Virus record (IMG/VR): IMGVR_UViG_638341087_000002
DNA length: 26,225 nucleotides
Direction: 5' to 3' (one strand)
DNA from: a virus
Taxonomy: Duplodnaviria > Heunggongvirae > Uroviricota > Caudoviricetes
Shown: positions 1,082 to 25,916 of the stretch, piece after piece
Numbering within the stretch: the stretch's first letter is position 1
Layout: every line of letters begins with the position of its first letter
The notes under the pieces: model-generated
Told to the model about the DNA's origin: nothing
Database searches by the model: none
What the model saw: only the letters and a program-made list of their open reading frames with translations
Position numbers and translations under genes: made by a program

Positions 1082-4000
1082 TCAACGGATACTGATGCCG
1101 GAAGCCGCTTTTTTGGTCACAATCACCGTACAGTCGGTGATATTGCCTGCCCCCTGATTGCCTTTCTGGTAAATCTTAAACTCCAGAGTGACGCTACCTC
1201 GCCCACTCGGCATATCAATAACCGCACTGTAACTACCGGGAATGGCCCCTTTAGTTTCTCTGGATGCGATTAATACGCCGTTTTTGCGAACTTCAAATCC
1301 ATAACCCGTGTACCTTGTACCTCCCGGATTATTACCACTTCCCGGATCGGTATACGCTATACCGTTAAAAATAATGGGCGGAATAATAATCTGACGGTCA
1401 AAGTTATGATCATCGCTGATGGTGACGGTAACCGTCCCGTCTGGCGTTTCCGTGTTACCCCACGTACCGACTTTTTTCGGGAAGGCTTTTGATACAGCTT
1501 TAACGAAATCCCCTCTGACCTGGGTCGCCTCCAGCATGCCCTTAATCGTACAGTTCTCACTTATCGTGACATTGTTGAGCGTCCCGGAGTTCGCATTCAC
1601 GTTACCGCTGATATCAGCGTTTTTCGCCGTCAGCCGCCCGTCCGGTGTCAGGGAAAATGCCGGTGGATTTCCACCACTGGTAATGGTCGGGGCCGTCAGA
1701 CGCTTCAGGAACACGTCGTTCATAAATATCTGATTGCCCTGCGCCACAAACATCGGCGTTTCATTCCCGTTTGCCGGGTCAATAAACGCGATACGGTTAG
1801 CGGCAACCAGAAACTGGCTCAGCTTGCCTTCTTCCGTGTCCTCCATGCTGAGGCCAATACCCGCGACATAATGTTTGCCGTCTTTGGTCTGCTCAATTTT
1901 GACGCCCCACATGGCATTCCACTTATCACTGGCGTCCTGCCACTCTTTCGAAAACTCCTCCAGTCTGCTGGCGTTATCCTCCGTCAGCTCGACTTTTTCC
2001 AGCAGCTCCTTGCCGAGATGGGATTCGGTTATCTGGCCTTTGAAAAAATCCAGGTAACCTTCCGCATCATCGCTCGCCTGACCGACAGCCTCCACGAATG
2101 CCGATTTGCCAACGGTGTTCACGCTGCGGATATAAAAGTAATAATCATGGCCCGGTTTGATATTGATACTGGCGGCTATCCAGTACATCCCCGTGCCAAG
2201 ATAGCGGGCTGTGGTTTCAACCTGCCTGATATCGGTAATCCGCTTTTCCGAAAACCAGAACTCAAACTGTACCGTCGGATCATAAACCGCAAGATGCGGC
2301 GTGGCAGTTATCTGAAAATAGCCCGGCGTCAGCTCAATCTGTGACGGCGCTGCCGGTGCGGCAATCCGGAACGATACCGATGCCGGATCGCCCTGCTGTC
2401 CCCACGCATTTACCGCCCGGACTGTCAGCCTGTAGTTCCCCAGCGCCAGCTGCCTGAAGCGGTATGCGGTTTCCGCCGCCCGGGCCGTGCTGACCAGCCG
2501 CTCACTGCCGTCATCCGCTGCCACGGTCAGGCGAAGCAGGAAACTCACGCCCTTCACCACCTTCGGCGTGTCCCAGCGGGCCAGTACCTGATACTCCCCG
2601 CTGTCTGCGGTGACTTCGGCTGTCAGGTGCTGCACCGCTGGCGGCGTGACACCATTCACCGTGCCGCTCTGGTCGCCGTCAAAGTGCGCCCCGTTATCCA
2701 CGATGGCTTCTTTCTCCGGCACATGCTGCACTGCCGTGATGGCAAAGGTACCGTCCGTGTTTTCCCGGATGGAGACACAGCGGAACAGGCGACGACGCAG
2801 TGACGGCAGGGAGAGTCCCCATACACCGTATGTCTCCACACCATCAGGCAGGGTGCTGACCTGTATCCGGTCCGGCGCGGGGTGTGCAGTGATGGCCACG
2901 CTCACCGGCTTACCGCTGCCGTTAATCAGGTTCACCGTGGCGGCACCTGTCTCCGGCAGTGTCACCTCACGGTCCAGCGTCAGGGTGCGGCTGGCGGCAT
3001 CGATGGACAGGATACGTCCGCCGGTCATGGTCCCGGCATAGTCGTTATCACAGATTTCAATAATGTCACCGGGTGTGTGACGCAGCCCCTGTGACCCGAG
3101 CGTGAAATCCACCGTCTGCGTTTCCAGCAGTCCGGTCTTTATCACCCACAGCCCGGCACGGTGGGCCTGACCGCGACTGGTGCAGCCGAACGCATCCATC
3201 TTCAGCAGGTTGCGCCCGTAGCGCAGTATGGCTTCCGGGTCTTCCACCAGTTCCGTGGAGGTCTGCCAGCCGTTCTGCGGGTCGACGTAACTGACCTCCA
3301 CCGCAGTATGACGGTCCTTCAGGGCGCTGAAACTGTAGCGGAATCCCACACCTTCATTGTCAGCCACCACATCACTGTTTGTGTAGGGCCACACCACATC
3401 TGACGGACGGTCCTGCACAAACGTCAGCGTCTGCCCGTTCCATACCGGCATACAGCGCATCGCCGAGCAGAAATCACTGAGAACGTCCCACGCCTTACGC
3501 TGTTGTGACAGGTACGCATTAAAGGTCATCCGCGGCTCTGTGCCCCCGAAACCATCCGGGACCGTCTGGTCGCAGTACTGCCCGATGGCATACAGCGCCC
3601 ACTTGTCCACATCCGCCGCCCCCAGACGTTTTCCCATTCCGTAGCGCGGGTGGGTCAGCATGTCCCACAGGCACCAGGCAGGGTTGTTGCTGTATGCCGG
3701 TTTCAGGCTGCCGTCCCAGATGCCGCTGTACGTGCGTTTTTCCGGGTCATAGTTTGACGGTACCTGAATGATGCGACCGCGGATATGGTAGTTCACCGTC
3801 ATCTGCTGACCGCCAAACTGCTCCGCATCCACCTGCAGCCCCACAATCGCCGTGTTCGGGTAGCACTGTTTCACATCGATGATTTCGGTGTATGACGACC
3901 AGAGCGTCTTATTCTGCAGCTGGTCCGTGGTGCTGTCCGCCGTCTCCCTGACCATCCGGATGTTAAAGGGGCGGGGAGGCAGATTATCCAGAATCACCGA

Positions 4001-9775: not shown

Positions 9776-10533
9776 TCACAACCTCCTTCCCTCCTCCCCG
9801 AAACGGACTCCACCGGCGAGGCCCGCCGCCTTCTGCATCAGTACATCATTTTCGTCCGGCGTCTCCGCCTGTCCTTCCTCTGCCTCCGGAGCGAACAGGC
9901 TGAAATCCGCCGGATGCATATCCGGATCGCCAAAAAACAGGCTGAGTACGGCGTACATCAGCCCGGAAAAATGCATATCCAGCTGGGTATCCTGAAAATA
10001 ATGCGTGCAGTAAAAACGTCGCCAGTCGGCATATTCGGTGGATGTCATCCCGGCAAGCATGGCGCGCCAGTCGGGTCTCCCCATCTCTCGCGCCAGTTTC
10101 AGGACAAAGTTCAGCTCGCCTTCGAATGCTTTTTTGATGTTACCGGCTCAGTCGCTTCTGCTTTCCCGGTTTGTTCAGGATCGGCATCGTGCCGGTTATC
10201 CAGCATACCTGAAAGATAAAGCACCCGGTTCGTTGCCTGATTCAGTGCATCAGCAGGCCATCCCAGCATCACTTCACGGCGGATCTGCTGCATCTCTGTC
10301 TCCGGAGAGGCCAGAGTGCCTTTGAGGGAATGGGAATGCCATAGCGACATCGCCACAAGCAGGGATGCCGTTTCCAGATATCGCTGGTTAATGTGCACGA
10401 CATCATGCTTCGTTGTCTCCTGTTGTTCTGCGTCTGAAACAAACTTTATATAATCAAACCGCTGCAGCGCAGACAATTCGGAAAGCGTGACGGACACACC
10501 GTTATATTCAAATTGTTCTGTTTTCAGAAACAT
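9776..10533 (-). CDS. Tail assembly chaperone G-T fusion made by programmed -1 ribosomal frameshift
   Basis: The T ORF (9776-10084) is in the -1 frame relative to G; the -1 frame is open from 10147 down to the T stop; slippery heptamer A AAA AAG at 10129-10135 (minus strand) lies in the G/T overlap. Confidence 0.75.
10111..10533 (-). CDS. G: Tail assembly chaperone G (zero-frame product)
   Basis: 140-aa ORF directly downstream of the major tail gene; ends ...EPVTSKKHSKAS; contains the slippery heptamer near its 3' end. Confidence 0.85.
   Translation of the reverse strand: MFLKTEQFEYNGVSVTLSELSALQRFDYIKFVSDAEQQETTKHDVVHINQRYLETASLLVAMSLWHSHSLKGTLASPETEMQQIRREVMLGWPADALNQATNRVLYLSGMLDNRHDADPEQTGKAEATEPVTSKKHSKAS
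10129..10135 (-). other. -1 frameshift slippery heptamer A_AAA_AAG (G-T)
   Basis: Zero-frame codons TCA AAA AAG read directly from the minus strand; after a -1 slip the reading continues AFEGELNFVLKLAREMGRPDW... into the T ORF. Confidence 0.75.
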
Positions 10534-11717: not shown

Positions 11718-12347
11718 TCATTTTCTTTTCAGCACCAGGCGTAACTGATGCGTCATGGCTTTCATCATCTGCGCCGGTAATTTTTCCCGGTACATCCGGT
11801 CCCGTTCACGTTCAAAGGTTTCTGCCAGCGGTCCGGCAGTCGTAATCTTCACCACTTCGATCGGCAGACGGTGGCGTTTCGGCCTCCCTTTGCTGTCCGC
11901 GCCGGTGGATGATGATGCCCACGGCATACGCTGCATCACATGCCAGCGTCCGTTAGCCAGCCGGGTGATAAAGGCGTCCGGGATCCGTCTTTTCCCCACA
12001 ATCAGCACACTGCCGCCCCCTTTCAGGGCCGCACGCTGTCCTTTCTTTCTCCGTTTTCTGCGGGAAAGTCGAACGCGGGCCTCCCCCAGTTTGATGGCGG
12101 GCAGGTTGCCGGTATTGATGTAAACCTTTGCGTAAACCTTATCCGGTCGTGCCGGACTTAACCGGATGCGGGCACGGATAAGACGACGGGGAACGGCCAG
12201 CTCCCTGGCAACTGAAGAGGCCGTTTTCGCAATAATGGCCCCCGCCACGCGGTTCAGTGTCGTGGCAGAGGCCCGGGGAACGGCACGGCGATCAATTGCA
12301 TCCAGATTTTTCATGGCCTGCGCCAGACCTTTTATTGCCATACTCAT
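11718..12347 (-). CDS. Z: Tail completion protein Z
   Basis: 209-aa basic protein (MSMAIKGLAQAMKNLDAIDRRAVPRAS...) in the lambda Z position, overlapping the FII-like gene by 4 nt. Confidence 0.8.
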   Translation of the reverse strand: MSMAIKGLAQAMKNLDAIDRRAVPRASATTLNRVAGAIIAKTASSVARELAVPRRLIRARIRLSPARPDKVYAKVYINTGNLPAIKLGEARVRLSRRKRRKKGQRAALKGGGSVLIVGKRRIPDAFITRLANGRWHVMQRMPWASSSTGADSKGRPKRHRLPIEVVKITTAGPLAETFERERDRMYREKLPAQMMKAMTHQLRLVLKRK

Positions 12348-12625
12348 TCCTGTTCGACAAAAATCCGGGGTTTACCGTTGTACGTGTCATAACGGGTCAC
12401 CGTCAGTGTGCGCCCCGCAAACACAACAACATCATGACGGGCCGGACGGTACCGGGCTGAAAACACCACCAGTGACAACTGGCTGCCCGAAAGCGCCCCC
12501 ATCTCCGCGGACTCTTCCTCCGGCATCACGTCGTACACGACGCCGTTAATCTCCGCCTGTTTGCCCATCACCCGAACGGTCGCCACGTCCATCCGGCAAC
12601 ACATTCGCGTAAACAGATCAGACAT
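12344..12625 (-). CDS. Head-tail joining protein, FII-like
   Basis: 93-aa ORF immediately upstream of Z; small beta-rich protein in the position of lambda FII. Confidence 0.6.
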   Translation of the reverse strand: MSDLFTRMCCRMDVATVRVMGKQAEINGVVYDVMPEEESAEMGALSGSQLSLVVFSARYRPARHDVVVFAGRTLTVTRYDTYNGKPRIFVEQE

Positions 12626-12944
12626 TGATTTTTACCGCCACAGTGGCGCTGTTTGCAGGGGCATTTTCCCAGGCTACCCCCGCTGCCACCGCACCGTCTG
12701 CAGCCAGCTGCACAACCCCGTCCTTCAGATAAACCACCGCGCCGGACTGAATGTCGTCAGCAGACTGTTTGGGCAGCAGGAACACGCCTTCGGCAAAACC
12801 GTCACCGGCCTCACCGGCAGGAATATCGGTAATGGCCACGGCCACCATACTGCCGACCACCACCGCAGCACCGCTCAGGATGGTCTGATCTCCGGCATTC
12901 ACCAGTTCAATGGTGGTACCGTCCTGTACAAAATTTTTCGCCAT
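12618..12944 (-). CDS. DUF2190-family small protein (capsid-associated, decoration-like)
   Basis: 108-aa Ala/Gly/Val-rich ORF MAKNFVQDGTTIELVNAGDQ... immediately downstream of the major capsid gene; pattern typical of DUF2190 proteins in this position. Confidence 0.6.
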   Translation of the reverse strand: MAKNFVQDGTTIELVNAGDQTILSGAAVVVGSMVAVAITDIPAGEAGDGFAEGVFLLPKQSADDIQSGAVVYLKDGVVQLAADGAVAAGVAWENAPANSATVAVKINV

Positions 12945-12990
12945 AATGCTGTTTCTCCGGACAGCCCCTGTGGGGCTGTTTTTCAGGCAT

Positions 12991-13009
12991 AAAAAAAGCC
13001 CTTTCGGGC
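12991..13009 (-). terminator. Intrinsic terminator/attenuator downstream of the major capsid gene
   Basis: Minus strand GCCC-GAAA-GGGC followed by a U7 tract, about 25 nt after the capsid stop. Confidence 0.55.
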
Positions 13010-13031: not shown

Positions 13032-15011
13032 TCAGGCCACCGACGAACGCACCAGCCCGCGCCAGTCAAGTGGTGCCACTCCGGCATCAATACGGATTTT
13101 TGTGGCAATGCCGTCAGTGGTGAAACCTTCCTGCTGATCAATGTATGGCGTGTCCACACCATCCAGCCAGGCCACTTCAATGGTGTCAGTGCCCTGTGCC
13201 GCCGCCAGATACCAGGTTTTCGGGTCTGCCGCATCAAGACGCGCTTCTGCAATCACCTCAGCAAAGTTCTGGATAGGGTTAATGACACCGGCGTTTGCAT
13301 CCGCCCCTTTCACACTGGCCGATTTGATGGTCTGGTTCGCCACCGTCTCCAGTGCCACCGGTACCAGCATAAAGGCCGGACGGATATTCAGGGCACGATC
13401 GCCTTCTTTCTGCAGGCGCATCATCTGACGGGCCGCATCCAGTCCGGAAACGGAGATCCCCCCGGTGGCAATATTTTTGTGATCGGCATGGAACAGCGCC
13501 TTACCGTCGGACAGTTTCGGGTTATCCGTCAGCACCTTGTAGACCAGGTCACCAATCGTTGCCTTCGCCGCACGCCCCATCTTCATCGGCACGTCCACCA
13601 GCATATTCAGATCATCATTGATAATGGCCTGGCGGGTGATGGAGAAAATCTCCCCGTAAGTGGCCAGTGCAATGGTCTCCTTGCGATCTGAGGTGGTGAT
13701 GTATTTATACTCCGCCCCCTCACGAACCTGGCGCAGAGAACCAAAACCGCCCATCCCCACGCGATACGCTGTTTTGAAGTCTGACAGGCGTCCCTTACGG
13801 GTCCACTTCTGGAAGGTTTCTTCTGATTCCTCCCAGCCCTGGATCAGCCCCTTGTTCGACACATCCAGCAGAATATTGCCAAAATCAGAGGTGCTGTGCG
13901 TCAGCGCCAGCCCGACCATCTGCATGGGGTTATAACTGGCCACCCCAATACCGCGCTCCGTCAGTGACATGCGAGCCCATTCACGCAGGGTCATCCCGTT
14001 ATAGGCGTTATCCTTCTCGACATTTTCAAATCCGGCACGGGCCAGCATCGCCTGGCGGATCCCGTCCCCCACAAAATTGCCGTTTCCGGCATAAATATGG
14101 GCCGGTGTATTTTTGTTGGTCGGCGAGGACTCCTTGCCCATTTCATTCAGCAGTCGTTCACGGGCCATTTCCAGCGAACAGTCAGGATCAGCCACGCACT
14201 GTGCCTGAAGCGTCTGATAGCGACCGCCGAACATGGCAAACAGATCGTTAATGCCTGACATGCGGGCTTTCTGTTCTGCCATAACGCGGGCGCGAATGGT
14301 CGCCTCATCAGACACTGCCGGTACCGGTGATGGTTCTGTTACCGCCGGTGCAGGGATTGTCACTGTGGTATCACGCGGGGCACTGTTGCGTGGCGGAGTA
14401 ATCATGTTTCGGATGGATTCCGGCATCTTTTTAAATTCCTCTGTACGTTTTGACTGAATACATGCCATTGCCTCAACAGCGGGTGTCACCTGGTCAGCAA
14501 ATCCGTGTGCCAGACATTCGGCACCGGACATCCAGGTTTCATCCGCCAGCATGGCGGCAATTTCATCGGTGGTTTTTCCGGTTTTCTGCGCATAGGCTGG
14601 CAACAGTACCGATTCGACTTTATCCAGCAAATCGGCATAACTGCGCATATCCTCAGCATCCCCGCCACTGAATCCCCATGGCTTATGGATCATCATGAAG
14701 GCATTTTCCGGCATAATGACCGTATCACCGGCCATCGCAATCACAGATGCCATCGAGGCGGCAACGCCATCCACATACACGGTAATGGTCGCCCCCTGAT
14801 TTTTCAGGGCATTAAAAATGGCGATGCCTTCAAAGACATCGCCACCCGGTGAATTGATATGGAGATTAATGTGGGTGATATCACCCAGGGCATTCATATC
14901 GCTGACAAACTGCTTCGCGGTAACTCCCCAGAAACCAATCTCGTCATAAATATAAATATCTGCCTCACCCTGACTACCCGCCAGCATCCTGAACCAGGAT
15001 TTATTCTTCAT
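13032..15011 (-). CDS. Fused prohead protease (ClpP/S49-like) - scaffold - major capsid protein
   Basis: Track ORF 13032-15203; start moved to Met65 (MKNKSWFRMLAGSQ..., first base 15011) to avoid a 200-nt overlap with the portal gene. N-terminal ClpP-like protease region (IYIYDEIGFWGV...INSPGGDVFEG..IFNAL...ASMASVIAMAGD), Ala/Pro-rich linker, C-terminal HK97-fold-type capsid region. Confidence 0.8.
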   Translation of the reverse strand: MKNKSWFRMLAGSQGEADIYIYDEIGFWGVTAKQFVSDMNALGDITHINLHINSPGGDVFEGIAIFNALKNQGATITVYVDGVAASMASVIAMAGDTVIMPENAFMMIHKPWGFSGGDAEDMRSYADLLDKVESVLLPAYAQKTGKTTDEIAAMLADETWMSGAECLAHGFADQVTPAVEAMACIQSKRTEEFKKMPESIRNMITPPRNSAPRDTTVTIPAPAVTEPSPVPAVSDEATIRARVMAEQKARMSGINDLFAMFGGRYQTLQAQCVADPDCSLEMARERLLNEMGKESSPTNKNTPAHIYAGNGNFVGDGIRQAMLARAGFENVEKDNAYNGMTLREWARMSLTERGIGVASYNPMQMVGLALTHSTSDFGNILLDVSNKGLIQGWEESEETFQKWTRKGRLSDFKTAYRVGMGGFGSLRQVREGAEYKYITTSDRKETIALATYGEIFSITRQAIINDDLNMLVDVPMKMGRAAKATIGDLVYKVLTDNPKLSDGKALFHADHKNIATGGISVSGLDAARQMMRLQKEGDRALNIRPAFMLVPVALETVANQTIKSASVKGADANAGVINPIQNFAEVIAEARLDAADPKTWYLAAAQGTDTIEVAWLDGVDTPYIDQQEGFTTDGIATKIRIDAGVAPLDWRGLVRSSVA

Positions 15012-16503
15012 GCTGGCTGTCGGTGGCCTGCTGACGCTGTTGTTCAGTTCCGGCACTGTTGCCTCCTTTGTCGTTGACGGGGTCAGTATCAAAGACCAGC
15101 CCCAGTCTGCTGTTTTCATCAATTTCAGCCTTGCGGCGACGTTTGACCTCATCCGGATTGCGCCCACCGGCACGCACCCAGTCAGATTCTGTCGCTGCAC
15201 CACCCCGGATCTGAATTCTCCAGGCTTCAGCTTCCTTAACCGGGTCGATCCACGGCATCACCGGACCGGAATACGTCGCGTTATATAGCGTTTTCATCTC
15301 CACATCCGCCGGAATTTTCAGCAGACCTGCCGCAACCACCATATTCAGCCATGTCCGGTACACCGGGCGGGTTACCGCGCCAATAAAACAGTCCTGCAGG
15401 ATCAGGTAACCATCCGTGGACTCGACCAGCTCCTGCCGCTGGGCGCTGTAGGTGCCGTTATAGTTACGCGCCGCACTGGAAAAACTCAGACGACTGCCTG
15501 CTGCCACTGCACGCAACTGGCCGTTGCGGAAAGTTTCAAGGTTGGGATTGGGACGGTCAGATTTGACCATGCCGATATCCTCGCCCTTGCGCAAATCGTC
15601 ATAAATAATACCCGGGGTGATATGGACTTCCCGCTCGGTCTCTTTGCTCCCCGGATCTTCATAGTCCTGTCCGTCACCTTTACGGATATACAGTCCCAGC
15701 GCCGCAGCAATACGCGCCGCTGTCAGTTCCGCATCCTCATACTCCTTAAGGGCACTGATCCGCATCAGCACCCCCGATAACATGGATGAGCCTCGCGTCT
15801 GATGCAGACGACGAGTGAACTTCAGGTGGATCATTTTTCCGGCAGCGATTTCTTTCGTATCACTCTGCCGGCCGCTGACCGGATAATTTTTATAAACCAG
15901 ATATTTTTTCGGTCTTCCCCACTCATCAAGAAAAACCCCCTGATTCAGTCCGGCGGATTCATCAGTGCGCATGGGAACAAAATCCGGCTCCATCGCCTCA
16001 AGCCAGAATGGCACTCCCGCCGTCCGTTCCAGACCGTTTCCCGCACCACTGACCATCTGCGCAAACACTTCACCATCCCGCAGCCAGGTCCGCAGCAGTA
16101 AACGTTCAAGCACAGGACGGGTATACTGCCCTGTCACATCCGGACTCACGGACCATTCAGCCCACAAACGGCGGATATCCGCAGCCAGCTCAGCCGCCAT
16201 TTCCCCGTTTTTTCGTAATGGCTGAGGCTCCACAATAATTCCCCTGGCACCAATCACCCGCTCTTCCAGCTTGTCAAACACACCAATCACCAGGTCATGA
16301 TTGATATCCAGAAAACGGGCCTGCTCCCGCAGGGAAACCGCACCGTATTTACTGAGCTGATCAGCAGAGCGATTTTCCCGCCGGGCTTTATGTGTCCGGG
16401 TCGGTTTCACCGCCTCATAGGCCATGATTAACGCCCTTGAACGCAGTCTGGCTGCTTTCCACCCGGGGGAAAACACGCCGATCACATCATCAATAATTGC
16501 CAT
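15001..16503 (-). CDS. Portal protein (lambda B family)
   Basis: 500-aa ORF between the gpW-like gene and the protease-capsid gene; size and sequence character of lambda-family portal proteins; acidic, Gln-rich C-terminus. Confidence 0.85.
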   Translation of the reverse strand: MAIIDDVIGVFSPGWKAARLRSRALIMAYEAVKPTRTHKARRENRSADQLSKYGAVSLREQARFLDINHDLVIGVFDKLEERVIGARGIIVEPQPLRKNGEMAAELAADIRRLWAEWSVSPDVTGQYTRPVLERLLLRTWLRDGEVFAQMVSGAGNGLERTAGVPFWLEAMEPDFVPMRTDESAGLNQGVFLDEWGRPKKYLVYKNYPVSGRQSDTKEIAAGKMIHLKFTRRLHQTRGSSMLSGVLMRISALKEYEDAELTAARIAAALGLYIRKGDGQDYEDPGSKETEREVHITPGIIYDDLRKGEDIGMVKSDRPNPNLETFRNGQLRAVAAGSRLSFSSAARNYNGTYSAQRQELVESTDGYLILQDCFIGAVTRPVYRTWLNMVVAAGLLKIPADVEMKTLYNATYSGPVMPWIDPVKEAEAWRIQIRGGAATESDWVRAGGRNPDEVKRRRKAEIDENSRLGLVFDTDPVNDKGGNSAGTEQQRQQATDSQHEE

Positions 16504-24157: not shown

Positions 24158-24325
24158 TCAAGCATTATGCAGGCTGTTTCTTTTTATCACCGGCCACAGC
24201 AATACCATAATGCCGCAGACCAGCACCCCATCCGCCAGCACCGACATGATTCTGCTGGTGAAATCCACCATCACCACCAGAAACAGCAGGAGTGCAGCCA
24301 CAGCCAGGCGCAGTTTTACCGTCAC
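24158..24325 (-). CDS. Hypothetical 55-aa two-TM small membrane protein, start codon overlapping the TerB-like stop
   Basis: GTG at 24323-24325 overlaps the TerB-like stop (GTGA) with GGAG 8 nt upstream; VTVKLRLAVAALLLFLVVMVDFTSRIMSVLADGVLVCGIMVLLWPVIKRNSLHNA has two hydrophobic segments. Not in the supplied track in this frame. Confidence 0.3.
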   Translation of the reverse strand: MTVKLRLAVAALLLFLVVMVDFTSRIMSVLADGVLVCGIMVLLWPVIKRNSLHNA

Positions 24326-24753
24326 AGGTGATTCTCCAGACGAAGACCCAGAACACCGGCAATCTCTTCCAGCACCTTGCGCTCTTCCGGCTCAATTTCG
24401 CCGTCTGCCTCCGCAATGGCCACCGCCACATCCAGCACATCTTCCGCTTCACGCGTATCGTGTTTCACATCCTCAATCTCGCGTAACGCGGCACGACGAC
24501 CAATTTTAAAATTGGTATCCAGCTGACCGATAATAGTTGCGCTAATCGCATTAATTTCCGAGGTAAACGCAGACAACGCAGGCTGATTACGTAAGACCTG
24601 TTCGATCTTCGCTTTCTCGGATGCCTCGCATTCACCATCTGCATAGGCCACCAGGTATGCAGCGTTAATCACCGCCTGTGCCAGATCGCGTTTCTCAAAC
24701 TTTTTAATTTCCGCTGCCGCTCTGCGGGTTTTCTTTTTGAAGATTCCAAACAT
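24322..24753 (-). CDS. TerB-like domain protein (tellurite-resistance TerB family fold), 143 aa
   Basis: ATG at 24751-24753 with AGGAA SD (track ORF starts at an upstream GTG). Two repeats of the TerB-type motif: AYADGECEASEKAKIEQVL and AEADGEIEPEERKVLEEIAGVLGL. Confidence 0.55.
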   Translation of the reverse strand: MFGIFKKKTRRAAAEIKKFEKRDLAQAVINAAYLVAYADGECEASEKAKIEQVLRNQPALSAFTSEINAISATIIGQLDTNFKIGRRAALREIEDVKHDTREAEDVLDVAVAIAEADGEIEPEERKVLEEIAGVLGLRLENHL

Positions 24754-24884
24754 CGTGACGTTCCTTTGGGTGGGTGAGCCAACGCCCGGGAGCGATCTGC
24801 CCACAGAGAAAGTCACACTGACCACTCCGTAAGCTCACCCCCGAAAGGCTCTGTGGTTGATATGCGCCGGGCGTGGCGCAGATA

Positions 24885-24922: not shown

Positions 24923-24999
24923 TGGCGCGTTGTAGTGGAGTCGAACCACTGACCGATTGCTTAGAAGGCAATTGCTCTGTCCGACTGAGCTAACAACGC
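24923..24999 (-). tRNA. argN: tRNA-Arg (anticodon UCU, reads AGA/AGG)
   Basis: Hand-folded cloverleaf: acceptor GCGTTGT/ACAACGC, D-arm GCTC..GAGC, anticodon stem ATTGC/GCAAT with loop CTTCTAA, T-arm AGTGG-TTCGACT-CCACT, discriminator G, encoded CCA. Confidence 0.8.
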
Positions 25000-25012
25000 A
25001 TGATGCTGATAA

Positions 25013-25089
25013 TGGACCGCCATCGGGGACTTGAACCCCGCGCAGCCAGCTTCGAAGGCTGGCGCTCTGTCCCGATGAGCTAATGGCGG
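25013..25089 (-). tRNA. argO: tRNA-Arg (anticodon UCG, reads CGA/CGG); atypical C1:G72 and U73
   Basis: Hand-folded cloverleaf: acceptor CCGCCAT/ATGGCGG, D-arm GCTC..GAGC, anticodon stem CCAGC/GCTGG with loop CTTCGAA, T-arm CGGGG-TTCAAGT-CCCCG, encoded CCA. Gene symbol assigned by position only. Confidence 0.65.
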
Positions 25090-25098
25090 TATGTGATA

Positions 25099-25174
25099 TG
25101 GTGGCCCTTGCTGGATTTGAACCAGCGACCTGGCGATTATGAGTCGCTCGCTCTCACCACTGAGCTAAAGGGCC
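25099..25174 (-). tRNA. ileZ: tRNA-Ile2 (anticodon CAU, lysidine-type, reads AUA)
   Basis: 76 nt GGCCCTTTAGCTCAGTGGTGAGAGCGAGCGACTCATAATCGCCAGGTCGCTGGTTCAAATCCAGCAAGGGCCACCA; near-identical to E. coli ileX/ileY as remembered; anticodon loop CTCATAA. Confidence 0.85.
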
Positions 25175-25202: not shown

Positions 25203-25916
25203 TCAATAATCAAGCCCTTGCCTGGATACATATCTGTCTGGCGGGAAGCCATAATAGCGGTGAAATACAGAAATAAAGTAGGACCTGCTTGAATAACCGC
25301 ATTTTTCTGCTATAGCCTGTCCATATCCATGCCGGGAACATAACATATTTACAGCAACACGCATCCGCTCTTCCAGCAACAAGCGACTGAACATGCCCCC
25401 TTCATTTTTCAGTTTTGTCTTTAACAAACTCTCACTCATATGCAACTGTAGAGCAATCGCACCAAGCGTCCAGCTTGCTGATATATCTGTCTGAATTATC
25501 GCCCTGACTTTGGCACTTATGCTGGATAAACATCCACTTAAAAACAATGACATCCGTTCATCTGTTTCAAACAGAGACAGGCAGGCCATCATAAGAAACA
25601 TATCCGTGGCCTCTCCGGAAAATCCCTGGCTGGTAATTAAAGCCGCAGCCAACGCAGGATTGTTGGGTTCCAGCAACAGGTAAAGCGGAATGTCAGTCAG
25701 ACGAGTCCTCGTCAGCTTATGCTGACTTTCCAGATATTGACTTACGACGGATTCGCTTATATCGACAATTTTAACTTTGCCATAATGCATAAGGAAAAGC
25801 TCCCTGATGCATTTGGTGGCCAGAACGACTGAGCCTGGCTTAAGTGACAACGTATCCTTTTCAAGAAAAATATTAATTGGGGAGCAAACCATGATAACTG
25901 AACAGACAACAGCCAT
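25203..25916 (-). CDS. AraC/XylS-family transcriptional regulator (prophage cargo gene)
   Basis: 237-aa ORF with C-terminal AraC-type double HTH (WTLGAIALQLHMSESLLKTKLKNEGGMFSRLL.EERMRVAVNMLCSRHGYGQAIAEKCGYSSRSYFISVFHRYYGFPPDRY). Start uncertain (Met1 at 25916 or Met9 at 25892; neither has a strong SD). Confidence 0.8.
   Translation of the reverse strand: MAVVCSVIMVCSPINIFLEKDTLSLKPGSVVLATKCIRELFLMHYGKVKIVDISESVVSQYLESQHKLTRTRLTDIPLYLLLEPNNPALAAALITSQGFSGEATDMFLMMACLSLFETDERMSLFLSGCLSSISAKVRAIIQTDISASWTLGAIALQLHMSESLLKTKLKNEGGMFSRLLLEERMRVAVNMLCSRHGYGQAIAEKCGYSSRSYFISVFHRYYGFPPDRYVSRQGLDY

Follow-up and report, generated by a model that had tools for sequence, protein, structure and literature searches.

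The stretch of DNA analysed here, a viral sequence of 26,225 nucleotides (nt) recorded in IMG/VR as IMGVR_UViG_638341087_000002 and called the window below, carries on its minus strand one long open reading frame (ORF) between a portal gene and a head decoration gene. The locus raises the question of how a phage head is built from such a frame: which proteins it encodes, whether it gives one product or two, and where its translation starts. The frame is open from GTG 15203 to the TGA at 13032-13034 (723 codons). Judged by its sequence, the locus at 13032..15203 (minus strand) is very probably the Gifsy-2-type tripartite capsid gene of an Escherichia coli lambdoid prophage. The fusion of protease, scaffold and shell protein in one frame is already described and is very common in E. 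coli; we count it as known and common because the gene belongs to a curated family and to the studied Gifsy-2 type. The additions of the present analysis are modest, namely a better-supported start codon and a conserved internal ribosome-binding site (RBS) followed by an ATG, which may give the gene a second product.

Identity and distribution of the fusion gene

Residues are numbered on the product of the following coding sequence (CDS) unless the 723-residue ORF is named.

13032..15056, minus strand: best-supported CDS, GTG 15056-15054 to TGA 13034-13032; 674 amino acids (aa), 73.2 kDa

The protein matches the NCBIfam family NF045540 ('ClpP-like prohead protease/major capsid protein fusion protein') with 1002.8 bits over profile positions 2-651 of 652. 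The curated cut-off of this family is 475 bits; those of the other NCBIfam models mentioned below are 120 (NF045542), 525 (NF045541) and 155 (TIGR00706). The match to PHROG 133 is almost full length and covers ORF residues 63-722. E. coli O157:H7 chromosomes contain the same DNA (100% identity over 2.4 kb), with the RefSeq product WP_001365078.1 under the NF045540 name, and a match to the gene was found in 2070 of 5426 complete E. coli genomes. Copies with 97-100% identity are present in phages converting for Shiga toxin (Stx) types Stx2a and Stx2d, in O157:H7 prophages, and in ASU11, 1720a-02 and CP-1639. More distant full-length relatives include mEp460, mEp213, mEp043, cdtI and LLS (about 76% identity), Fels-1 (63%), Gifsy-2 (60%) and Pseudomonas F10-like phages (58%).

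An earlier note, made from the letters of this sequence, had read the locus as a single polypeptide in which a ClpP-like prohead protease, a linker/scaffold region and the major capsid protein are fused. The fusion in one frame is borne out by Pfam, NF045540, Foldseek and collinearity with Gifsy-2. The checks that the note had proposed and that were run, namely domain searches and structure prediction for the C-terminal part, were all positive for the protease and for the HK97 fold. Its words 'single polypeptide' hold for the frame, which is continuous, and may be incomplete for the product, since the conserved internal RBS-plus-ATG suggests a second, nested one.

The value of the fusion itself lies in annotation, as it marks the capsid gene of common lambdoid prophages of E. 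coli, Shigella and Salmonella, including Stx-converting phages. Database names for the gene are inconsistent and include 'Clp protease', 'scaffold protein', 'head maturation protease', 'Nu3' and 'major capsid protein'.

Domain structure of the protein

The protease and capsid domains are joined, in one uninterrupted frame, by a middle region of roughly 130 residues. The features are as follows.

14484..14963, minus strand: ClpP-type (peptidase S14) prohead protease domain, residues 32-191 of 674 (PF00574, NF045542)
14754..14756, minus strand: codon of Ser101, at the position of the ClpP catalytic Ser (GVAASMAS; alignment to ClpP 6hwm)
14685..14687, minus strand: codon of His124, at the position of the ClpP catalytic His (MMIHKPWG; alignment to ClpP 6hwm)
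14538..14543, minus strand: codons of Asp172-Glu173; Glu173 lies at the position of the ClpP catalytic Asp and Asp172 is adjacent (6hwm)
14310..14393, minus strand: hypervariable linker rich in Pro, Ala, Thr and Val, residues 222-249 (composition, alignment)
14130..14309, minus strand: conserved helical scaffold-like (delta-domain-like) segment, residues 250-309 (AlphaFold2 model, alignment)
14082..14129, minus strand: predicted disordered loop ESSPTNKNTPAHIYAGN, residues 310-325 (AlphaFold2 score below 50)
13035..14081, minus strand: major capsid domain, HK97 fold, Mu gpT-like, residues 326-674, 38.0 kDa (PF25209, PF10124)

The ClpP-like serine protease that the earlier note had placed at the N-terminus is clearly present. 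The Pfam CLP_protease model (PF00574) matches residues 81-240 of the 723-residue ORF with an E-value of 2.7e-36, and NF045542 ('head maturation protease, ClpP-related') scores 222.8 bits. In phmmer searches against the Protein Data Bank (PDB), ClpP chains were found down to an E-value of 1e-18, and for the whole protein only ClpP chains occur among the 60 matches listed. Ser101 and His124 align with the catalytic residues of ClpP; together with Asp172 and Glu173 they are invariant in 14 relatives. The SppA model TIGR00706 gives 26 bits, below its threshold, and the best protease family is ClpP/S14.

The linker PRNSAPRDTTVTIPAPAVTEPSPVPAVS contains seven Pro, four Ala, four Thr and four Val among 28 residues, in agreement with the Ala/Pro/Thr-rich middle described earlier. 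It is the sole indel-rich and poorly conserved stretch of the protein among relatives. The scaffold-like segment behind it is conserved both in relatives and in a sister fusion family, and is predicted to fold into three helices (residues 251-274, 281-289 and 295-309) with predicted local distance difference test (pLDDT) scores of about 89-93. For the whole 674-aa protein, a shallow alignment of 14 close homologues gave no usable AlphaFold2 model (pLDDT 34.6). The model used here covers residues 245-674 and was built from a 73-sequence alignment including 30%-identical relatives of the sister family; it reached a pLDDT of 85.9 and a predicted template modelling score of 0.72, with a mixed alpha/beta domain from residue 327 to the end. 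The only model segment with pLDDT below 50 comprises protein residues 311-325 (model residues 67-81) and falls in the loop ESSPTNKNTPAHIYAGN, which directly precedes an invariant GNGN motif.

The C-terminal part proved to be a capsid region with the HK97 fold, as the earlier note had expected. The Pfam model Phage_capsid_4 (PF25209) matches residues 430-720 of the 723-residue ORF (E-value 9.9e-56); the match to Mu-like_gpT (PF10124) is weaker. When the C-terminal 375 residues alone were compared with PDB, the Mu capsid protein 9jod (E-value 2.3e-5) and the JBD30 capsid protein (8rkc/8rkx) were found, and a 23-sequence profile strengthened the JBD30 match to 2.2e-9. Foldseek comparison of the model with PDB gave HK97-fold shells only, every one with a probability of 1.00; they include phiXacJX1, SaPI1, the JBD30 procapsid, D3, HK97 Head II, T5, Mu and encapsulins. 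Two short 'capsid-only' database proteins were checked as possible unfused relatives and were uninformative: one comes from a contig with 2x coverage in which the protease and capsid frames fall out of register just past the junction, probably by an assembly error, and the other lies at a contig end.

A possible second start signal at the protease/linker junction

Between the protease domain and the linker, an in-frame ATG is preceded by a purine-rich motif resembling a Shine-Dalgarno (SD) sequence.

14437..14441, minus strand: SD-like GAGGA, from the Glu-Glu codons GAG GAA, 10 nt upstream of ATG 14426
14424..14426, minus strand: ATG of Met211 at the protease/linker junction, candidate internal start

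A product started at Met211 would have 464 aa (50.5 kDa) and would consist of linker, scaffold-like segment and capsid domain without the protease. Met occupies the junction column in 101 of 102 unique family proteins. The predicted SD energy is -5.5 kcal/mol or lower in all 42 unique junction-ATG contexts, as against 5.6% of 1019 other internal ATGs. In the same 42 contexts a GAG codon always forms GAGGA, AGGAG or GGAG; the relevant junction Glu codon is invariably GAG, which accounts for only 37% of Glu codons across these genes. The purine motif persists despite changes of the encoded amino acids, which are EE here, ED in several genera, QE (CAG GAG) in Pseudomonas F10 and ME (ATG GAG) in Psychromonas. 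In Gifsy-2, AGGAG stands 9 nt upstream of the junction ATG. Gene callers repeatedly start proteins at the junction Met despite an open frame upstream.

The same signal was found in the sister fusion family, NF045541 ('prohead protease/major capsid protein fusion protein'), which occurs in Ralstonia, Pseudomonas and many metagenomic phages as a single ORF of about 650 aa. It shares with the present gene the homologous linker, the scaffold-like helices and the gpT-like capsid domain at about 30-35% identity, but its protease is unrelated, being of the HK97 / PF04586 type (S78, formerly U35) and not ClpP. The scan of IMG/VR with our alignment A3 returned close relatives only, and a second scan with the sister family was used; its loci are L128-L207, and L046 is Ralstonia phage YO135_4 (ORF 1844..3937). 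A junction ATG is present in 63 of 68 sister-family ORFs from IMG/VR. The residues ahead of it vary (QEE, RKE, TKG, QGA, SGA, NGS and others), yet positions -12 to -7 of the DNA have the consensus rAGGAa, with canonical 6-nt spacing (rAGGAa-N6-ATG); of 56 unique contexts, 96% have G at -9. Junction sites reach -6 kcal/mol in 62% of cases, compared with 7.8% of other internal ATGs and 4-11% of windows shifted by 30-60 nt. Here too, database gene callers often begin proteins at the junction Met with the frame open upstream. Conservation of the junction signal in two families with unrelated proteases argues for selection on the start site itself.

On balance we incline to the view, from these comparisons, that the gene encodes a nested pair: a 674-aa polyprotein and a 464-aa protease-free scaffold-capsid protein started at Met211 (14426). 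Several points weigh against it. The internal SD stands 9-10 nt from its ATG, at the long end of the usual range. It is encoded by conserved Glu-Glu codons, so that constraint on the protein contributes to its conservation. Its predicted strength is -6.0 kcal/mol, compared with -11.6 kcal/mol at the upstream start, and since the upstream SD is so much stronger, the ratio of the two products is not predictable.

Alternatively, the motif and the Met could be left over from an ancestral gene boundary, where a protease gene met a scaffold-capsid gene, or could be simply a conserved Glu-Glu...Met peptide, with the full-length polyprotein as the only product. The peptide SKR(I/T)EEF(E/K)KMP is indeed conserved at the protein level, and the long spacing suits this explanation as well. 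An unbiased scan for synonymous-site conservation gave a borderline z = 3.3 at the junction, with three other windows similar; the tests aimed at the junction motif itself told more. The literature covered on such fusions makes no mention of a nested product, although the primary Gifsy-2 paper lies outside that literature and may note one. However, a relic or a peptide constraint does not sit well with a nucleotide motif that is kept across differing amino acids and in both fusion families, with a first Glu codon that is always GAG against a usage of 37%, or with the preference of gene callers for the junction Met. The nucleotide-level conservation across the two families thus weakens this alternative, which we regard as possible, if doubtful.

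If the nested pair is real, the internal start would explain how tripartite capsid genes avoid packing one protease per shell subunit, which would amount to 415 copies if the shell is T=7 with one portal vertex. It would extend the nesting principle of lambda C/Nu3 to capsid proteins, and the two start sites would be a simple, testable handle on protease dosing during head assembly.

The probable main start codon

The start of the full-length product lies in the 3' end of the portal gene, which the fusion gene overlaps.

15001..16503, minus strand: lambda-family portal gene (PF05136, E-value 1.6e-80; TIGR01539, 444 bits)
15062..15068, minus strand: SD AAGGAGG, inside the portal gene (..DKGG..), with a 5-nt spacer to GTG 15056
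15009..15011, minus strand: ATG, residue 16 of the 674-aa product (Met65 of the earlier note; RefSeq start of WP_001365078.1, 659 aa)

The 723-codon ORF overlaps the portal ORF (500 codons) by 203 nt in another frame, which matches the overlap of about 200 nt described earlier. The overlap is conserved among relatives, with a length between 11 and 86 nt; counted from GTG 15056, the fusion CDS shares the final 56 nt of the portal gene and lies in the +1 frame relative to it.

Translation most likely starts at GTG 15056, to give the 674-aa product. The duplex of its SD with the 3' end of 16S rRNA has a predicted energy of -11.6 kcal/mol, the best among 65 in-frame ATG, GTG and TTG codons. For comparison, 26 related loci from genera other than that of E. 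coli were used, among them Klebsiella, Yokenella, Buttiauxella, Phytobacter, Atlantibacter, Ewingella, Citrobacter, Pantoea, Sodalis, Morganella, Providencia, Psychromonas and Spongiibacter. A GTG, ATG or TTG with an upstream SD stands at the homologous position in 22 of the 26; the SD is AAGGAG or AAGGAGG in 18 and the weaker AAGG or AAGGA in four others. The annotated Gifsy-2 start is an ATG exactly at the position of GTG 15056 (MPEV... compared with MPEL...), and a database cluster of the 674-aa form (99% identical, 3481 member sequences) begins at the upstream start.

The earlier note had preferred Met65, that is ATG 15011, which would give 659 aa and leave the upstream GTG with its SD incidental to the portal CDS. 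This start was chosen for WP_001365078.1 by the NCBI annotation pipeline PGAP, which tells against GTG 15056, as does the fact that ATG is the stronger start codon; the PHROG 133 profile also begins near this residue. Furthermore, the SD at 15062..15068 is encoded by the conserved portal motif ..DPANDKGG.., so that constraint on the portal contributes to its conservation, and the conservation of AAGGAGG could partly stem from the ..DPANDKG.. peptide. Yet ATG 15011 has no SD at or below -5 kcal/mol, compared with -11.6 kcal/mol for GTG 15056, and none of the 26 related loci has Met at the equivalent residue, which is A, P, L or V; 22 of them have the upstream start with its SD. Both the Gifsy-2 annotation and the 674-aa cluster speak for the upstream position. 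We therefore set Met65 aside as the likely start in favour of the better-supported GTG 15056, and consider translation from ATG 15011 unlikely.

A start still farther upstream (GTG 15203 or ATG 15152) or a frameshift from the portal frame, giving a longer product or a portal-capsid fusion, had been left open by the earlier note; the frame is indeed open for 49 codons upstream of GTG 15056 in the window and some database entries are annotated as 707-722-aa forms (P0065, P0107), but relatives have in-frame stops 48-51 codons ahead of the IYDEIG motif (L010, L016-L019), the candidate SDs are weak (-5.6 to -6.4 kcal/mol), and the frameshift, which we reject because it would need a +1 shift, a rare direction for which there is no support, across an overlap of variable length and with stops in relatives, shares with the longer forms a probability that we put close to nil.

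Downstream of ..DPANDKGG.. the portal tail is highly variable; it shares its DNA with about the first 18 codons of the fusion gene, and the N-terminal peptide of the fusion protein is likewise variable. Among the 65 in-frame start codons, GTG 15056 was the only one accepted as having a strong SD; a G-rich site inside the ClpP domain (GTG 14780, -9.4 kcal/mol) was dismissed as compositional.

The corrected start at GTG 15056 is relevant to anyone expressing the protein. In this allele a further in-frame ATG follows 15 codons after that start, and it is the one that annotation pipelines tend to choose.

Gene neighbourhood and state of the prophage

The gene order is lambda-like: a DUF1441 small terminase-like gene, a gpA-type large terminase, a W-like gene, portal, fusion gene, decoration gene (PF09956 / PHROG 122) and an FII-like gene, followed by Z, U, V, G/T, tape measure, M, L, K, I, J and Lom. 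No separate protease, scaffold or capsid gene was found in the window by ORF list, Pfam or PHROG. The fusion thus takes the place of separate lambda C/Nu3/E genes, as had been proposed, and no capsid ORF stands by itself between portal and tail genes. The decoration protein is a functional partner of the capsid domain.

12618..12944, minus strand: head decoration (cement) gene, 108 aa (PF09956 Phage_cement_2, E-value 6.6e-19; PHROG 122 'head decoration')

One could suppose that the gene is a silent remnant of a defective prophage, without present function. Many O157-type lambdoid prophages are defective, and in VT1-Sakai (AP000400.1, an Stx1 phage) the homologue of the fusion gene is interrupted by IS629, which leaves two pieces; that copy is presumably inactive because the insertion cuts the gene in two. 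What is known here of this prophage comes from its sequence. In the window, however, the ORF is intact, with every domain and catalytic residue conserved, and the gene sits within a complete head-tail gene set. Identical or near-identical copies are found in inducible Stx2-converting phages. We consider a silent remnant improbable.

A scan for promoter and terminator consensus sequences inside the gene found nothing above shuffled expectation. The 87-nt gap between the fusion stop and the decoration start contains two small hairpins (window 12962..13009, minus strand). The first, GCCC-GAAA-GGGC followed by T7 (13009..12991), is terminator-like, with a 4-bp stem under the scan threshold. The second, CAGCCCC-ACA-GGGGCTG (12978..12962), stands directly ahead of the GGAG RBS of the decoration gene. 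Records of mEp460 have a 'terminator' annotated inside the region matched by a query spanning the fusion gene.

The names of the 93-aa gene that follows the decoration gene (12344..12625, minus strand) conflict between databases: 'DNA breaking-rejoining protein' in RefSeq, PF13856 'Gifsy-2' = 'ATP-binding sugar transporter' in Pfam, and 'minor tail protein' in PHROG. Its position and a weak match to Phage_attach (lambda FII) suggest a head-tail joining protein. Farther along, a gpG-like ORF (10111..10533) and a T-like ORF (9776..10084), both on the minus strand, have the layout of lambda G and GT, where a programmed -1 frameshift is used. For the identical prophage, RefSeq marks the T part as a pseudogene and incomplete, probably because the frameshift was left out of the annotation model.

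In the late region, three tRNA genes (24923..25174) read Arg-tct, Arg-tcg and one with a CAT anticodon. An ORF for an AraC-family regulator (25203..25916) lies upstream of them, and an ORF with a TerB domain (24322..24825, PF05099) lies downstream, where closely related Stx2a phages have stx2AB. Because of this replacement at the stx2AB position, the prophage appears to be a non-Stx relative of Stx-converting phages.

Possible assembly pathway

The sequence analysis establishes the domain identities, the fold, the family membership, the conservation of start signals and the gene context. The steps of the pathway outlined here, which we infer from work on Gifsy-2 and from HK97 and lambda assembly, are proposals, as are the cleavage site and the use of the internal start. 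The capsid domains would co-assemble around the portal into a T=7 procapsid, with the scaffold and protease parts facing the interior. The tethered ClpP-like protease would then cut off everything N-terminal of the capsid domain. The maturation cut would probably fall in or near the loop at residues 310-325, ESSPTNKNTPAHIYAGN; this candidate cleavage region is a guess from the structural model. The shell would expand while DNA is packaged, and the decoration protein (12618..12944) would bind as cement, like lambda gpD.

If the internal start at Met211 is used, it would also yield the 464-aa protease-free protein. Procapsids could then be mixed, with only some subunits carrying the enzyme, and how much protease is delivered would depend on the ratio of the two starts.

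Comparison with known systems

HK97 gp4/gp5 is the closest analogue of the putative internal product: there a scaffold-like N-terminal delta domain is fused to the HK97-fold capsid, and the prohead protease cuts it away. That protease is of the S78 type and a protein of its own in HK97, whereas the present one is ClpP-type and fused. The HK97 shell is held by covalent cross-links and has no decoration protein, in contrast to the present locus with its decoration gene. The gene is therefore outside the HK97 gp4/gp5 system, and the helical extension fused to the capsid domain is the sole shared feature.

The lambda C/Nu3/E genes (with D) and Mu I/Z/T occupy the same position in the head operon, between the portal and the decoration or capsid genes. 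The lambda logic is alike in that protease and scaffold share a frame and a gpD-like cement protein is used, and Mu gpT is a sequence homologue of the present capsid domain. Lambda gpC is commonly classed as an S49 (SppA-type) protease, not ClpP/S14, and both lambda and Mu encode the capsid protein in a gene of its own, whereas it is fused here. The present gene is thus outside the lambda C/Nu3/E arrangement, with another protease family and a capsid protein that is not separate. The lambda scaffold Nu3 is made from an internal start within C, according to Shaw and Murialdo 1980 as cited in PMC8508860.

Against the model of the sister family NF045541 the present gene scores 418 bits, over residues 262-720 of the 723-aa ORF; this is under the cut-off, and with its different protease the gene is outside that family.

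The members of NF045540 show no essential difference from the present gene. They comprise mEp460, mEp213, mEp043, cdtI and LLS, the Stx-converting phages, Pseudomonas F10/MD8-like phages and Paracoccus prophages. The same three-in-one architecture has been described and modelled in MD8-like Pseudomonas phages (PMC8508860) and noted in 17 Paracoccus prophages (PMC6536676).

The nearest studied system is the Salmonella phage Gifsy-2 (STM1034.3n, 696 aa), whose gene has the same order of protease, linker, scaffold-like segment and Mu gpT-like HK97-fold capsid. Its tripartite capsid gene is reportedly the subject of a study by Effantin et al. 2010, said to be in Virology 402:355. The two proteins are collinear (residues 1-673 here and 1-696 in Gifsy-2), with 419 of 696 positions identical (60%), and the start position and the junction Met are shared. 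The neighbours are also the same: a lambda-type terminase, a W-like gene, a portal gene with overlapping 3' end and a decoration gene, then Z, U and V. The differences comprise 40% of the sequence, the length and sequence of the linker, an 8-residue insertion in Gifsy-2 in the loop before the capsid domain, and the start codon and host (ATG and Salmonella, compared with GTG and E. coli).

The Gifsy-2 shell is T=7 (PMC8814770), with a trimeric cement protein at the 3-fold axes (PMC8538268); according to the literature on this phage, proteolysis releases a mature capsid protein of about 35-38 kDa, and the T=7 shell is decorated. Every testable defining feature of the Gifsy-2-type tripartite capsid gene is present at this locus.

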